IMG/VR virus record: IMGVR_UViG_3300042923_001771
Location: 1 to 64,000 of that record
Source: a virus
Lineage: Duplodnaviria > Heunggongvirae > Uroviricota > Caudoviricetes
Length of the DNA stretch: 64,000 nt
Strand: one strand, 5' to 3'
The notes beneath the pieces were generated by a model. The model saw only the letters and a program-made list of their open reading frames with translations, did not search any database and had not been told where the DNA came from. Position 1 is the stretch's first letter. Each line of letters starts with the position of its first letter. The translations under genes were made by a program, and so were the position numbers. Of the stretch, positions 718 to 43,647 are shown piece by piece.

Positions 718-1398
718 ATGGAAAATCAAATTAACAATGAGGTAGTTACACAGGATGATAACTTCACGGAGATTTCAGTACAACGTGGTCTTCACGAAAT
801 TAAAATGCTAGACAAACGAATTGCTAAGGCAATTAATGACCTCAAAGTTATTGGAGTTGCAACTAATCAAGATCCAATTCCTGGCTATAAAACGAATGAT
901 GATTTCACTGCCGAAGTTAAGGCTGCTTATCAATCATTGCAGGCATTGATCACTCGTAGAGCTGCAATTAAAGCTGCAATTGTTCTTTCTAATGCTACTA
1001 CTGAGCTTTTTGTAGCAGATACTAAGATGATTGTTGCTGAAGCCATTGAGAGAAAAGGACTTATTGGAAACGATGAGAACCTCTTAAATAAGATGGTCAG
1101 AGACCAAATGCAAGCTATCCAGAGGGTTGAACGTGAAACTGAAGCTTTAAAGCCTCGTCTGGATTCTTACATTACTGGAGCTCTCGGCAAAGACACTAAA
1201 GGGAAAGAAGACCAAGTGAAAAATGTAACTGAGCAATTCATGGAGTTACACAAACCTAGGTTGATTGATCCATTGTCTGGCGGAATTTCAAAAGTCATCA
1301 AAGAGCTTTCAGATGAAATCAATACATTCAAATTAGAAGTTGACTTTGCACTTGATGCCTCAAACATCAAGACAATGATTCGTATTCCTAAGAACTAA
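718..1398 (+). CDS. hypothetical protein, coiled-coil rich
   Basis: 226 aa ORF with a strong RBS (ttggagggg, 6 nt spacing). Confidence 0.6.
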   Translation: MENQINNEVVTQDDNFTEISVQRGLHEIKMLDKRIAKAINDLKVIGVATNQDPIPGYKTNDDFTAEVKAAYQSLQALITRRAAIKAAIVLSNATTELFVADTKMIVAEAIERKGLIGNDENLLNKMVRDQMQAIQRVERETEALKPRLDSYITGALGKDTKGKEDQVKNVTEQFMELHKPRLIDPLSGGISKVIKELSDEINTFKLEVDFALDASNIKTMIRIPKN

Positions 1399-1399
1399 G

Positions 1400-1985
1400 A
1401 TTTAAAAATTTGCTGCTTAGCTGAAAACCAATAGAACTAAATACCCTCCCCCGGCCCTGGGTTATGGGCTGGACTACACTTAACGTATGATATACGTTAC
1501 CTACAAGGTAAATTTGATAAGTCATTTGGGACTATTATCTAAAATGGATAACTCGTGCAGAGTATACAAAACATGGATAAGGGCTCAGGACTCAGGTTTT
1601 AGGGTAGTTAGGACTGACGTCTTAGGGTTCTTCATAGGTTCAGGTTTCAAGGTTAAGGTTGCAGGAGCTTGATAAAACCTTGGGTTAAAGGTGAAACGAC
1701 GGATTTATTTAATGCTGTCATTGGTCCCCTCCAAGCAAGCTAAGCAGCAGTTTACATATTTTAAAACATGGTTCGCAAAGCGTAAACAGGGAGACTTTAT
1801 CTGGACTCACGGTTCCTGAAAACGTAAGCTGTAAAAAATCTCTGGAAGATTGGTCCACTTCAAGGAAGGATTTACCATTACATATCATGGCGTGTCAGTC
1901 AACCTTCGAGGTTCTGTCTGTAAGTCCCCCTCTAAAAACTTTCGAAGCTTAGAGGTCTACATAATTTAAAGGAGAGATTAATTTA
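1400..1985 (+). ncRNA. candidate large structured non-coding RNA (ROOL/GOLLD-like size class); strand tentative
   Basis: About 590 nt with no credible ORF. GC is clearly above the flanks. It has complementary C-rich (ccctccccc, gtcccctcc, gtccccctc) and G/T-rich (gggttatggg, ggttttagggtagttagg, aggttaaggttgcagg) tracts. Flanking genes keep their own RBSs. Confidence 0.3.
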
Positions 1986-1986
1986 T

Positions 1987-2511
1987 ATGAAAATTACTTT
2001 AGCGCAAGCGGTTCCATTAAGAGGTATTATTTCTCGTCGTATTCAGGAGTTACTTCATGAGCGTAATAGTGTTTCTGTTGTTACTATTGAAAAAGGTGAC
2101 ACTTATGAAAAACCTGTTCGTTCAATGGAGTTAGTAACAGAAGAACTTACTCAAGCTCGTGAAGACTTACGTAAGTTGGATATTGTTATGACTACTGCAA
2201 ATCTTTCTGCCTTTGTTAAGTGGGATGGAGAAGATATTTGTATTACTGAAGCTATTGAATTATCAAAACAAATTCGTGGCGAAGTAACTCAAGTTAAAGC
2301 TTTTGGTAACCGTAAAAAGCAAGAGAAGGAAACAAATTGGAGAAGTCCAGAATCTTCAAATATTGTTGTTGCTTTATATGAGCCAGAAACATATCGTCAA
2401 TTGGCACTTAAGTTGGAACGTCAAGTTAATAAACTTTCTCAAGATATTGAGGCTAAAAATCATACTGTTGAAATTGAGTATGCTGGAGCAATTCGATATA
2501 TTGAGGTGTAA
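1987..2511 (+). CDS. hypothetical protein
   Basis: 174 aa ORF; RBS aaaggagag. Confidence 0.55.
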   Translation: MKITLAQAVPLRGIISRRIQELLHERNSVSVVTIEKGDTYEKPVRSMELVTEELTQAREDLRKLDIVMTTANLSAFVKWDGEDICITEAIELSKQIRGEVTQVKAFGNRKKQEKETNWRSPESSNIVVALYEPETYRQLALKLERQVNKLSQDIEAKNHTVEIEYAGAIRYIEV

Positions 2512-2814
2512 TAATTGACCAGACTTCACTGGTCTCGAAAGATAGTGAACATTCATTGTTTTTCGAGATTAGTTAATTCTAGTCTAAAGTAGAGAAGTGT
2601 GAGAGACGTTTGTATTGTACGTAACAATGCACTATTCGTAGATTTATCTACTAATTTTTATCTAATACAACATTACAGGTGAAAACTTAGGAAAACAGAT
2701 CACGGGTGACGGATCACAAATTACGCTTCTTACAGTTTACGGACTTCCTTTCTTTTGAAGAAAAATGCGCTTACGCAGAAATACTCCGTTCTCTACTTTT
2801 ATTACATATTTACA

Positions 2815-2850
2815 GAAAGAGATGGATATTTTCCATCTCTTTTTTTTTAT
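2815..2850 (+). terminator. rho-independent terminator
   Basis: Hairpin agagatgga-tatttt-ccatctct followed by a T9 run. Confidence 0.6.
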
Positions 2851-2871
2851 TATCTCTATAGAGGTGATAAA

Positions 2872-3048
2872 ATGACTAGACTTAAAAAAGTGGCCGACTA
2901 TTTAGAAGAACTAAAGGAAAACATTGAACAAAAAGATATACATGAAAAAAAGCTAGATGATCAAAAATCATTATATGAGCAGCATCCAGATACTTCTTTC
3001 GAAAAAGATAAATCACTTTATACTTTCAATAGATTGAAGAGAAAGTAA
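2872..3048 (+). CDS. hypothetical small protein
   Basis: Internal ATG with RBS agaggtga. The longer upstream frame would overlap the terminator hairpin. Confidence 0.45.
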   Translation: MTRLKKVADYLEELKENIEQKDIHEKKLDDQKSLYEQHPDTSFEKDKSLYTFNRLKRK

Positions 3049-3125: not shown

Positions 3126-3545
3126 ATGACATTAAAGATAACAAATAATATGTTTGATGCAACACTTAGAGTTTTTAGCAGATTGTATCCAGATAAAACA
3201 AATTTAATCATTCAATTTGATCCACTAATTAAAAATAAAAAGAAGACTGGATATTTACTATTACCAGAACCAGATGGTGAAATTACAGATATCTTTGTTT
3301 TCATAAATGCTAAATTAAGCGTAATGGAAGCTGTAGATGCTTTAATAGAACAACTAACTGAGGTCGTAGTAGGTGTTGATAAAGAACATAATGAATTTGT
3401 TTGGAGAAAAACTTATAATGAGTTGATGGATTTATCTGAAAAAGAACTTCTAGTAATGTTTGATGAGTTAAATCTTGATAAAACATCGTTTTATCAATTT
3501 GATGATACTGGAAAAGAGATAGAAAGGGACGATAAAGATGAGTGA
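3126..3545 (+). CDS. hypothetical protein
   Basis: ATG after RBS gggagg; 139 aa. Confidence 0.55.
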   Translation: MTLKITNNMFDATLRVFSRLYPDKTNLIIQFDPLIKNKKKTGYLLLPEPDGEITDIFVFINAKLSVMEAVDALIEQLTEVVVGVDKEHNEFVWRKTYNELMDLSEKELLVMFDELNLDKTSFYQFDDTGKEIERDDKDE

Positions 3546-3753
3546 TGATTGGAAATGTTTAGTTTGTAGTGGTAAAATTAAAGCTAAGTGCAAGTGTGCT
3601 AGAAGAGATATTGTTTGTGAAAATGGATGCGAGTATCATTGGTCTCCTTTTCATAAAGAGTATCATTTAGGAGGCAGTGATCATAATACTGATACAATGA
3701 GTGTTGATTGCTGTAATGAAAGGAAGATTTTAAATGAGCAATCACAATCTTGA
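3538..3753 (+). CDS. Cys-rich Zn-ribbon protein (N-terminal domain related to the YWK family, tail absent)
   Basis: CLVCSGK..CKC..CENGCEY mirrors the CPICSGK..CENGCY of copy C. Overlaps its neighbours by ATGA. Confidence 0.45.
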   Translation: MSDDWKCLVCSGKIKAKCKCARRDIVCENGCEYHWSPFHKEYHLGGSDHNTDTMSVDCCNERKILNEQSQS

Positions 3754-4111
3754 ATGTAAAATTTGTAGCTCTGAAATGAATATAGATCTTGAACCAACTA
3801 CATTTTGCGATAAACATATTATGTGCCCTAATGGATGTTATGAGGAAATACACGGACAAAATATGATTGATATTTATATCTTTGAGAAAAAATTTAAAAT
3901 AGAAAAAAATAAATTGTTAATGAGTGGTGTTGAGTTTGCTGATGAAATTCAAAAGACAATAGATTATTGGAAAGCAAACGAAAGATATTTAGTTAAATTA
4001 CTTGAAGGTTATGTGTCTGTATCGCACAAACCAAAATCAATTATTTTCCATGAACAAATTGGAATGGCGGTTATTAATAAAAATGCTATTGCAAGTATAA
4101 AAATGACATAA
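3734..4111 (+). CDS. Zn-ribbon protein, YWK-ND-RY family, copy B
   Basis: CKICSSE..CPNGCY then IDYWKANERYLVKLL. Confidence 0.55.
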   Translation: MSNHNLECKICSSEMNIDLEPTTFCDKHIMCPNGCYEEIHGQNMIDIYIFEKKFKIEKNKLLMSGVEFADEIQKTIDYWKANERYLVKLLEGYVSVSHKPKSIIFHEQIGMAVINKNAIASIKMT

Positions 4112-4567: not shown

Positions 4568-4717
4568 TTAAGCTACGGTTGTTTCTTCTGATTGCAATTG
4601 CTCGTTTTCATCATCTTGTTCGATCATTTGTTTGACTGTGACAATCCATTTTATAGCATTTTCAACTCCAACTTTTTCTTCTAAAACTTCAATTGGATGT
4701 TTGATTTCTTGTTCCAT
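4568..4717 (-). CDS. hypothetical small acidic protein (49 aa)
   Basis: Not in the ORF track (under 60 aa). Minus-strand ATG preceded by GGAGG at 8 nt. Confidence 0.4.
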   Translation of the reverse strand: MEQEIKHPIEVLEEKVGVENAIKWIVTVKQMIEQDDENEQLQSEETTVA

Positions 4718-4809
4718 TTTTAAAACCTCCATTTTGATTGTTTCTTATATAATATATATATATTCACCAATATTAAAAATGTTCCTATTGTCAATAAAAA
4801 AATCAGAGG

Positions 4810-42937: not shown

Positions 42938-43306
42938 TTGGAACAAGACGTAGAGCTTTTAAGAAGTGAAATTTATCAACTTAGAAACGAAATCTATCAA
43001 CTTAGAACTGAAGTTGGTCAACTAAAGTTAGATTCAGATAGTTTAGAAAATAAAATATCAAATCAACACACCGTTTTGATTCAAGCCATAAATATGCAGA
43101 TAAACTTGTTAAACCAAATGAATCAAACTATTGGTTCATTAAACAGCAAGTTGTCAGATGTTGAAATTAAAACCAACTACACTGATGATGCTATTAAGGA
43201 ATTAGCAGATGCGAATAATGGTATAATTCAAGAACTTCATGAAATGAAAAGTTCAATTGATACTATGAAATTTTACACACTTGGCTACAATCCCAATCAA
43301 GGCTAG
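42938..43306 (+). CDS. coiled-coil protein
   Basis: Heptad repeats SEIYQLRNEIYQLRTEVGQL; TTG after gggagg. Confidence 0.5.
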   Translation: MEQDVELLRSEIYQLRNEIYQLRTEVGQLKLDSDSLENKISNQHTVLIQAINMQINLLNQMNQTIGSLNSKLSDVEIKTNYTDDAIKELADANNGIIQELHEMKSSIDTMKFYTLGYNPNQG

Positions 43307-43401
43307 TTATAAATCATAGATTTAAATGTTATTTAAATAGTGTCACGTCGGCTGGTTTAGTCTATTTAAATCATAACTTCAACTAATGGTGGTGGTTGGA
43401 A

Positions 43402-43647
43402 ATGGGAGCAGAACCCGGGAGAATTGATTATAAGAAGAATGATAGAGTCATTGACTCTGCATGGGATGAATTTTCTGAGTATATTGGAGAAAACAAAATC
43501 AAAACTCCGCTCGCATTAGAAGAATTTGAGCAGATTTTTTCAGAGCTAAATAAGAATGGTGAGTACACAATGTGGAAAGATTTAATTCTACAATCTTTCA
43601 GATACGATTCATATTCTTGGCCGCTCGTTGAAAGAACCCTTAGTTAA
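43402..43647 (+). CDS. hypothetical protein
   Basis: ATG 9 nt after ggtgg. Confidence 0.5.
   Translation: MGAEPGRIDYKKNDRVIDSAWDEFSEYIGENKIKTPLALEEFEQIFSELNKNGEYTMWKDLILQSFRYDSYSWPLVERTLS

Follow-up and report, generated by a model that had tools for sequence, protein, structure and literature searches.

A gap between two genes of a tailed-phage genome probably encodes a divergent member of a widespread, gene-linked family of structured RNAs

What occupies the 588 nt that separate two genes, at positions 1399-1986, in the tailed-phage sequence of IMG/VR record IMGVR_UViG_3300042923_001771? The window, by which we mean the whole stretch of 64,000 nucleotides that was analysed (positions 1 to 64,000 of that record), is phage-like in its content, with clamp loader, helicase, ribonucleotide reductase and tail spike families. 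The gap is flanked by gene A (718-1398, + strand), which codes for a 226-aa protein of the phrog_1491 / T5.085 family (PHROG match 7.8e-61), and by gene B (1987-2511, + strand), whose 174-aa product matches phrog_25222 (4.8e-33). A preliminary description of this DNA had noted that some 590 nt between two genes, each endowed with its own ribosome-binding site, hold no credible open reading frame (ORF), and had proposed that they form one large, highly paired RNA resembling ROOL or GOLLD. The first statement is borne out, since the gap contains short ORFs only (61, 42 and 39 aa on the + strand, 45 and 56 aa on the - strand), and the 61-aa frame has no match in Pfam or PHROG. As for the second, comparison with related sequences leads us to conclude that positions 1409-1749 of the + strand probably encode a structured RNA some 340 nt long, which would be a divergent representative of a family that is widespread, linked to gene A and absent from Rfam 15. 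The proposal was thus right as to the kind of object, a structured non-coding RNA encoded on the + strand of a phage, whose helices are backed by covariation, and wrong as to its identity and its size.

The gap does not behave as a single unit. Its GC content (0.40) exceeds that of gene A (0.377), of gene B (0.347) and of the entire window (0.325), a contrast which had been called marked and which is mild. Folded as a whole, the 588 nt are no more stable than shuffled sequences (z = +0.10), and for this reason we divided the gap into two parts. The first module (1408-1752) has a folding z of -2.77, and none of 100 shuffles folds as well, whereas the second (1753-1986) is worse than its shuffles (z = +1.63). 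A perfect 12-bp inverted repeat (1411-1422 / 1738-1749, with 315 bp between its arms) encloses the element. The boundary between the two modules is also marked in L009, a 2-kb Logan contig which is the closest relative and has a gene B 75% identical to that of the window: this contig matches the gap in two blocks, and a GIY-YIG/NUMOD3 homing-endonuclease gene lies exactly between them. The endonuclease gene (L009 128-994) is free-standing and is inserted past the 3' arm of the closing stem, P1, and before module 2. The RNA takes up about the first 60% of the gap, and the last ~235 nt, which had been included in the estimated size of ~590 nt, are not part of it.

The models on which membership in the family rests were built without the window sequence. 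A hidden Markov model (HMM) of 29 relatives finds the stretch 1409-1749 (341 nt, + strand; E 1.1e-13) as its sole significant match in the 64 kb. A covariance model (CM) of the 3' domain of the RNA recognizes 1672-1737, likewise as its sole significant match in the 64 kb, over model positions 1-64 of 64 (37.2 bits, E 7.9e-11), and in the resulting alignment all eight modelled pairs of the window (CUUGG / CCAAG in helix P2a and AGG / CCU in helix P2b) are standard. The same CM locates the expected site in L009, T5, Hena1, phiL47, Aeromonas 4_4572, NDO71 and PN09, and finds nothing in loci which have gene B alone.

In the relatives, the element goes together with gene A. A tblastn search with gene A retrieves 736 phage records, which include T5-like phages, Otagovirus, Bastille-type Herelleviridae, Lactococcus 949-like phages and phages of Vibrio, Klebsiella and Erwinia. 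In all the records that we opened (T5, phiL47, PN09, Jenst, Deep Blue, Thurquoise, PBC6, Hades, NDO71, Hena1 and Aeromonas 4_4572), 360-790 nt without a credibly annotated gene lie downstream of the gene A homologue, and a run of short purine motifs, of the UCAAAG type, is present in every phage gap inspected. When one genome per GTDB species is scanned, 80 more gene A loci are retrieved, mostly from Bacillales; their element is very uniform and immediately follows the stop codon. Of 91 gene-A loci, 87 are matched by a profile built from 33 non-redundant elements, always on the strand of the gene and at a median distance of 14 nt past its stop codon (11 nt in the window), and three of the four loci that the profile misses are recovered by the CM. 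The element measures 245-290 nt in the relatives. Several chromosomes of Bacillus, Lysinibacillus and Psychrobacillus carry the cassette of gene and RNA among ordinary genes, with no obvious prophage; other relatives lie inside or beside phage tRNA arrays, while the window itself has no tRNA.

Some of these loci have features of their own. A metagenome-assembled genome of Parabacteroides contains a tandem pair of RNAs after a single gene A homologue (L103, 2138-2420 and 2571-2767). The skipping-rope motif of Rfam adjoins the gene-A-linked RNA in phage Jenst (L017, 3140-3217) and in a Paenibacillus (L029, 2516-2644), and is found near gene B in a third locus (L010, 2140-2224), placements that hint at an "RNA island" which recurs and to which tRNA genes also belong. 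In Klebsiella phage NDO71, an annotated tRNA-Cys (L023, 1880-1955) overlaps the 5' domain of the RNA; the tRNA model of Rfam matches other tRNAs of this phage and not this one, and the annotation is probably false. Last, the T5 record describes, about 1.5 kb downstream of the T5 element (complement of 43139-43497 in NC_005859.1, immediately past T5.085), a 719-nt "RNAX, stable RNA with unknown functions" (rnaX; L018, 5072-5627).

We could not find the family represented by 1409-1749 among the 4227 families of Rfam 15, nor any description of it elsewhere. At the gathering score, no family matches the full 64-kb window. When the threshold is relaxed to E<=10, the region 1300-3000 gives no match to the models of ROOL, GOLLD, group I and II introns, raiA, OLE and HEARO, all of which the preliminary description had put forward for comparison, and the gap gives a weak match to RsmY alone (12.5 bits, E 3.9, for a gathering score of 57). 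In 32 related loci searched at the gathering score, the matches are to tRNAs, skipping-rope, BsrG and preQ1, and none falls on the element. No model of a group I or II intron core matches in the window, and the GIY-YIG ORF of L009 is downstream of the 3' strand of P1, hence outside the RNA. Neither blastn with the gap nor megablast with 8 kb finds a match in 50,697 phage records, and scans of IMG/VR with gene A, gene B and a DNA pattern find none either. Apart from the source, exact-protein look-up returns one identical Logan contig only, so that there is no close variation to exploit. As for the literature, searches for T5.085, DUF6847, PF20935 and the phrog identifiers return nothing, those for DIP1984 and 3KDQ return irrelevant matches only, and no matching motif figures in the available part, the main text, of three motif surveys (2017, 2021 and 2024).

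It is consequently extremely improbable that the RNA belongs to the ROOL or GOLLD class. The phage context on which this assignment was based is right, and the position of the relatives beside tRNA arrays is one which the available part of the published survey describes as frequent for ROOL and GOLLD in phages (PMC5737381). However, no Rfam model matches, either at the gathering score or at E<=10 in the window, or in the 32 related loci, and an element of 340 nt with another architecture is difficult to reconcile with RNAs of ~580-800 nt.

The architecture was deduced by comparison of the relatives, which shows a predicted fold made of a closing stem (P1), a 5' hairpin whose loop forms a pseudoknot with an upstream strand, and helices P2a and P2b; compensatory changes are observed in each of these parts. 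The 5' strand of P1, UGCUGCUUAGCU (1411-1422), pairs with 1738-1749. P1 is detected automatically in 68 of 92 homologous sequences, right after the CCNCCNRG motif, and 10 of its 12 pairs are changed on both sides across 30 members; the column-wise pairing is 76%, a value lowered by a one-base bulge in a Lysinibacillus subgroup. The 5' hairpin (1443-1472) consists of stem Pa (1451-1457 / 1466-1472), of loop UGGGUUAU and of pseudoknot PK1, in which GGGU (1459-1462) of the loop pairs with ACCC (1443-1446) upstream. This combination of hairpin and pseudoknot is present in 15 of 18 members of the subtype, compared to 1.75 (maximum 8) in shuffles. The sequence of the Pa stem differs in nearly every member while the loop UGGGUUAA is conserved, and PK1 covaries to CACC/GGUG and ACCU/AGGU. 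Downstream of Pa, a variable insert (1473-1575), which is longer than in most relatives judging from the alignment gaps, may form local hairpins, read from the sequence (AACGUAU 1482-1488 / AUACGUU 1492-1498, and UACC / GGUA within 1499-1511).

In the 3' domain, the 5' strands of P2a (CUUGG, 1679-1683) and P2b (AGG, 1689-1691) have their partners at 1731-1735 and 1728-1730, respectively. Both 3' strands are contained in the CCNCCNRGC motif CCUCCAAGC (1728-1736), which is followed by the 3' strand of P1 (1738-1749). P2a (CYNGG / CCNRG) is paired in 99.3% of cases, with alternation of UA, CG, AU and GC, and three of its five pairs are changed on both sides; P2b is 87-98% paired. A further pseudoknot (1699-1721) is tentative: P3 would pair ACGG (1699-1702) with CUGU (1715-1718), and P4 would pair AUG (1712-1714) with CAU (1719-1721). 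By eye, the homologous positions of P3 covary (AGGU/ACCU, GAGC/GCUC, AAGU/ACUU and AGGA/UCCU). Taken together, the helices of the 3' domain (P2a, P2b and the tentative P3 and P4) have a covariation score of 0.361, compared to 0.166 for column shuffles (0 of 500 reach it) and at most 0.228 when the partners are slid.

This fold also bears on the "C-rich islands" of the preliminary description, which had been presented as complementary to G/U-rich ones. Two of them (1442-1457 and 1723-1736) are indeed paired strands, but their partners are 1459-1472 and 1679-1691 rather than the G-rich array described below, and the third (1923-1936) lies outside the RNA. The CCUCC sequence was also considered as an anti-Shine-Dalgarno mimic, an idea that we rejected, because this strand is engaged in pairing and its middle base covaries.

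Several helices contain G-U pairs, which makes the structure specific to the RNA of the + strand. This bears on the hypothesis that the element acts as DNA, for instance as origin iterons, as a packaging site or as the inverted repeats of a small mobile element. The perfect 12-bp inverted repeat around 315 bp, the short repeats with a period of 7 nt and the homing-endonuclease gene inserted alongside in L009 could be understood in this way. On the contrary, the compensatory changes include G-U pairs that are valid on one strand only, all of the 87 loci have the same orientation with respect to gene A, the element is present in a single copy in 64 kb, and a period of 7-8 nt is unlike the helical repeat of DNA; we regard a DNA-level function as very improbable.

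Between the two structured halves of the RNA sits an array of about 11 purine motifs spaced by 6-9 nt (1576-1672, 97 nt, + strand), which was delimited by positional alignment. The length of this block is nearly fixed, 91-94 nt in 28 of 29 relatives, with 127 nt in Jenst and 97 nt in the window. In the relatives the alignment reads UAAAAG-CUCAAAG-GUUAAAG ... UCAAAG-CUCUUA ... UUCAAAG ... UUAAAG, with YNAAAG as the unit. The array of the window appears to be alignable with it position by position, with the unit YNAGG: AGG(G/A) replaces AAAG, and the centre is UUCUUCA in place of CUCUUA. The array of L009 has the same AGG variant. The composition shifts accordingly, from A 0.40 and G 0.14 in the relatives to A 0.23 and G 0.33 in the window. 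The AGG(G/A) motifs at the array positions are what had been described as "G/U-rich islands", and the G-rich island is real: the density of AGG in 1580-1665 (11 per 100 nt) is the peak of the 64 kb, whose mean is 0.99, and is reached by 0 of 500 dinucleotide shuffles. We found no complementary partner for the array, and it is therefore taken as unpaired. Pairing of the array with tRNA anticodon loops was considered, as was an array of Shine-Dalgarno-like sites; both ideas were dropped, the motif differences between hosts fitting neither.

The array also bears on the possibility that the gap holds a decayed gene, whether tRNA remnants, a pseudogene or an unrecognized small protein gene. Related phages have tRNA genes at the same position, and the 61-aa ORF is there. 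But ARAGORN detects no tRNA or tmRNA in the window, and none in 1301-3000 at a relaxed threshold, and the tRNA model of Rfam has no match. The 61-aa frame, which has no family match, covers the array, where relatives have UAA-containing motifs (GAUAAAAG, GUUAAAG), and the ORFs of the window and of L009 differ. We give this explanation hardly any credence.

A more serious contender is that the RNA titrates a host factor, as a decoy or sponge, gene A being a mere neighbour or helper; the factor could be a defence protein or an RNA binder of the Hfq, CsrA, S1 or nuclease type. The element has many short, repeated, single-stranded motifs, as do the sponge RNAs CsrB, RsmY and RsmZ and CrcZ, RsmY is the sole, weak Rfam echo in the gap, and genes of anti-defence type (Tad4, Macro) occur near relatives of gene B. 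The RsmY score is, however, far below the gathering score. The same array is found with hosts from E. coli to Bacillus, and yet the window has switched from AAAG to AGG, which is awkward for one conserved host ligand, and the strict coupling to gene A points instead to the co-encoded protein. A sponge for a host factor is in our opinion unlikely.

What, then, is the protein encoded by gene A? Its AlphaFold2 model (predicted local distance difference test, pLDDT, 89.9) is a long helical bundle plus a small sheet, and the best fold match in the PDB is 3KDQ, an uncharacterized protein of Corynebacterium diphtheriae (probability 1.00, E 0.013); the model therefore predicts a DIP1984-like fold. The product of gene B gives weak matches to DIP1984 / DUF6847 (NCBIfam DIP1984_fam, 1.6e-4, which is under the cut-off); among its homologues, one is entered in its source as "DIP1984 family protein", and Pfam PF20935 is present in several. 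Alignment of the profiles of the two proteins with hhalign (probability 79%, E 1.6e-5, over the N-terminal halves) suggests that gene A and gene B are distant paralogues. Sequence searches of the PDB with both proteins give matches at chance level only, and PADLOC returns no match. Databases label phrog_1491 and T5.085 (NC_005859.1, 43505-44143) as "tail fiber protein". This looks like a propagated misnomer, because the predicted fold is DIP1984-like and the cassette is found among housekeeping genes in Bacillales chromosomes.

Another gap, some 330 nt long, lies downstream of gene B (2512-2844, + strand); it closes with a strong intrinsic terminator (2814-2844, detected by scan) and appears to encode a second RNA. 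This RNA comprises a long hairpin (2517-2584), a closing stem of ~15 bp (~2588-2604 / 2783-2799), an invariant hairpin AUUGU / ACAAU and six UNAC units with a spacing of 7 nt (2700-2740). With nhmmer, it is matched past gene B in each of the seven relatives that were fetched, and Bacillus phage Bobb has it too (L001, about 4670-4720). The heptad columns, that is the UNAC unit with its 7-nt spacing, are invariant among relatives. RNAalifold finds compensatory changes in 7 of 24 pairs, which include several columns of the closing stem, and the folding z is -7.84. No Rfam family corresponds to this RNA either. The window would thus contain, in tandem, two paralogous modules each made of a protein gene and an RNA.

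Between the two RNAs, the remainder of the first gap (module 2, 1750-1986, + strand) is ~75% identical to L009 993-1211 and has no other homologue. It contains the octamer TTACATAT at 1752-1759 and 1878-1885 and, upstream of the ribosome-binding site, a hairpin (CCUCUAA / UUAGAGG, 1929-1935 / 1949-1955) with one compensatory change. We treat module 2 as a probable unstructured spacer or 5' leader of gene B, outside the RNA family. The octamer occurs a third time at 2802-2809. Each of the two RNAs has one copy directly past its closing stem, and the corresponding positions of L009 also carry the octamer, which may serve as a signal for processing or as part of a promoter.

Consensus scans also place, ahead of gene A, a terminator-like hairpin (570-589) that would end the preceding unit and a site which is promoter-like by this criterion alone, without proof of function (627-656, + strand; TTGTTA, 18 nt, TG-TATACT). 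Elsewhere about the locus, small Cys-rich (CxxC) ORFs at 40-273, 3734-4111 and also 3538-3753 have a C-terminal motif in common (IKYWKDNDRYLTKL and IDYWKANERYLVKL), and the second of the set matches phrog_4661 and phrog_13559. Their sequences suggest a paralogous family of zinc-ribbon-like proteins scattered about the locus.

How could such a module operate? In the mechanism that we favour, the RNA 1409-1749 would be co-transcribed with gene A from the promoter-like site at 627-656, and its folded core would display the array as a platform on which an oligomeric protein binds at many sites. The simplest choice of binder is the co-encoded, DIP1984-like protein of gene A, in which case a protein-RNA particle would form. 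That the array is a binding platform for an oligomeric protein, most simply this one, is a proposal which we make tentatively and to which we would give somewhat less than an even chance. An intrinsic terminator follows P1 in 32 of 67 relatives, at a median distance of 3 nt, and is absent in the window and in T5; since the RNA has no terminator of its own in the window, the transcript probably continues into gene B and the second RNA.

These terminators also speak to the hypothesis that the element is a cis-acting part of an mRNA, either a 3'-untranslated region (3'-UTR) operator or stability element of the gene A message, acting via the gene A protein or a host factor, or a leader of gene B. 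The element starts a median of 14 nt past the stop codon of gene A, invariably in the orientation of this gene, the 32 relatives in which transcription would end within a few nt make it the physical 3' end of the gene A transcript, and in the window no terminator stands ahead of gene B. Two pseudoknots, one of them tentative, a long closing stem and an array of fixed length (92 nt) are nevertheless far beyond known 3'-UTR stabilizers, and no other relative links the element to gene B. A purely cis-acting role therefore seems to us quite unlikely, although it overlaps with the proposed platform, since an RNA derived from a 3'-UTR could be both.

Several observations weigh against the reading of the element as a trans-acting, protein-binding RNA with the fold described above. 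A terminator after P1 in half of the relatives fits a plain 3'-UTR element equally well. The support from folding energy is modest (z = -2.77). The P3/P4 pseudoknot is without statistical support: a generic test gives 29 of 30 compared to 24.4 in shuffles, and in a second test these helices are 47-65% paired, the MAFFT register differing between subgroups. The composition of the array in the window departs from that of the family (G 0.33 vs 0.14), so that a common ligand is not assured. Finally, the two proteins have mildly acidic isoelectric points (5.6 for gene A and 5.9 for gene B), and neither contains a recognized RNA-binding domain.

The two modules may be considered together. It may be that they are tandem two-part systems, in each of which a helical protein of the DIP1984 superfamily is associated with a pseudoknotted RNA that carries an array of fixed length (~11 x YNARG in one case, 6-7 x UNACGNN in the other); the protein would oligomerize on the array to give a defined ribonucleoprotein, widespread in model phages such as T5 and in Bacillales chromosomes, with a role in phage-host conflict or in tRNA/translation biology beyond that of known systems. 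We offer this broader picture as a speculation which is, taken in full, rather less likely to be right than wrong by a clear margin. An anti-defence role, or one related to tRNA and translation, is suggested by the neighbourhood alone.

If the family is indeed undescribed, it is a new class of ornate RNA which hundreds of sequenced phages carry, the model phage T5 among them, as do many genomes of Bacillus, Lysinibacillus, Brevibacillus and Paenibacillus. The tie of the RNA to one protein family gives an experimental handle that is absent for ROOL, GOLLD and most orphan RNAs. It would also be the first contextual clue for the DIP1984/DUF6847 superfamily of proteins, and would correct a "tail fiber protein" label that has spread. 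The presence next door of a paralogous protein with a different array-bearing RNA suggests a general design of protein plus RNA rather than a one-off.

How does this RNA compare with known systems? Like ROOL and GOLLD, it is non-coding, highly structured and pseudoknotted, occurs in phages and in chromosomes, is found in the setting of tRNA arrays and has no assigned function. Unlike them, it is short (~250-350 nt vs 580-800) and has an array of unpaired purine motifs. The strict coupling to one protein gene that we observe is not reported for ROOL or GOLLD in the available parts of the corresponding articles (PMC5737381, PMC12286853). The skipping-rope, drum and DUF3800-I motifs (Weinberg et al. 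2017) invite comparison too, skipping-rope being adjacent to the element in Jenst and in the Paenibacillus locus. They differ from it in sequence and structure, and the skipping-rope model of Rfam matches the neighbour and not the element; as for DUF3800-I, the protein associated with the gene-A-linked RNA is DIP1984-like and not DUF3800, and the orientation and position of the RNA are fixed.

Short motifs with regular spacing in a mostly unpaired stretch are the classic mark of RNAs to which an oligomeric protein binds at many sites: CsrB, RsmY and RsmZ carry GGA motifs, CrcZ has A-rich motifs, and the trp leader to which TRAP binds has 11 G/UAG triplets. The ~11 short purine motifs of the gene-A-linked RNA, with their regular short spacing in a mostly unpaired stretch, resemble these arrays. 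In contrast to the RNAs of the CsrB/RsmY type, however, the motifs are in an unpaired run and not in hairpin loops, the scaffold is pseudoknotted and closed by a long stem, and the RsmY model fails (12.5 vs 57 bits).

A last parallel is with type III toxin-antitoxin systems, which have in common with the present one a compact cassette where a single protein gene is coupled to a single RNA that bears repeats, found in phages and also standing alone among chromosomal housekeeping genes. In systems of the ToxIN type, the RNA is upstream of the gene and consists of tandem repeats of 34-45 nt, and the protein, whose fold is different, is an endoribonuclease. Here, on the contrary, the RNA is downstream of the gene, the units of 7-9 nt are embedded in a unique scaffold, and the protein is predicted to be a helical bundle.

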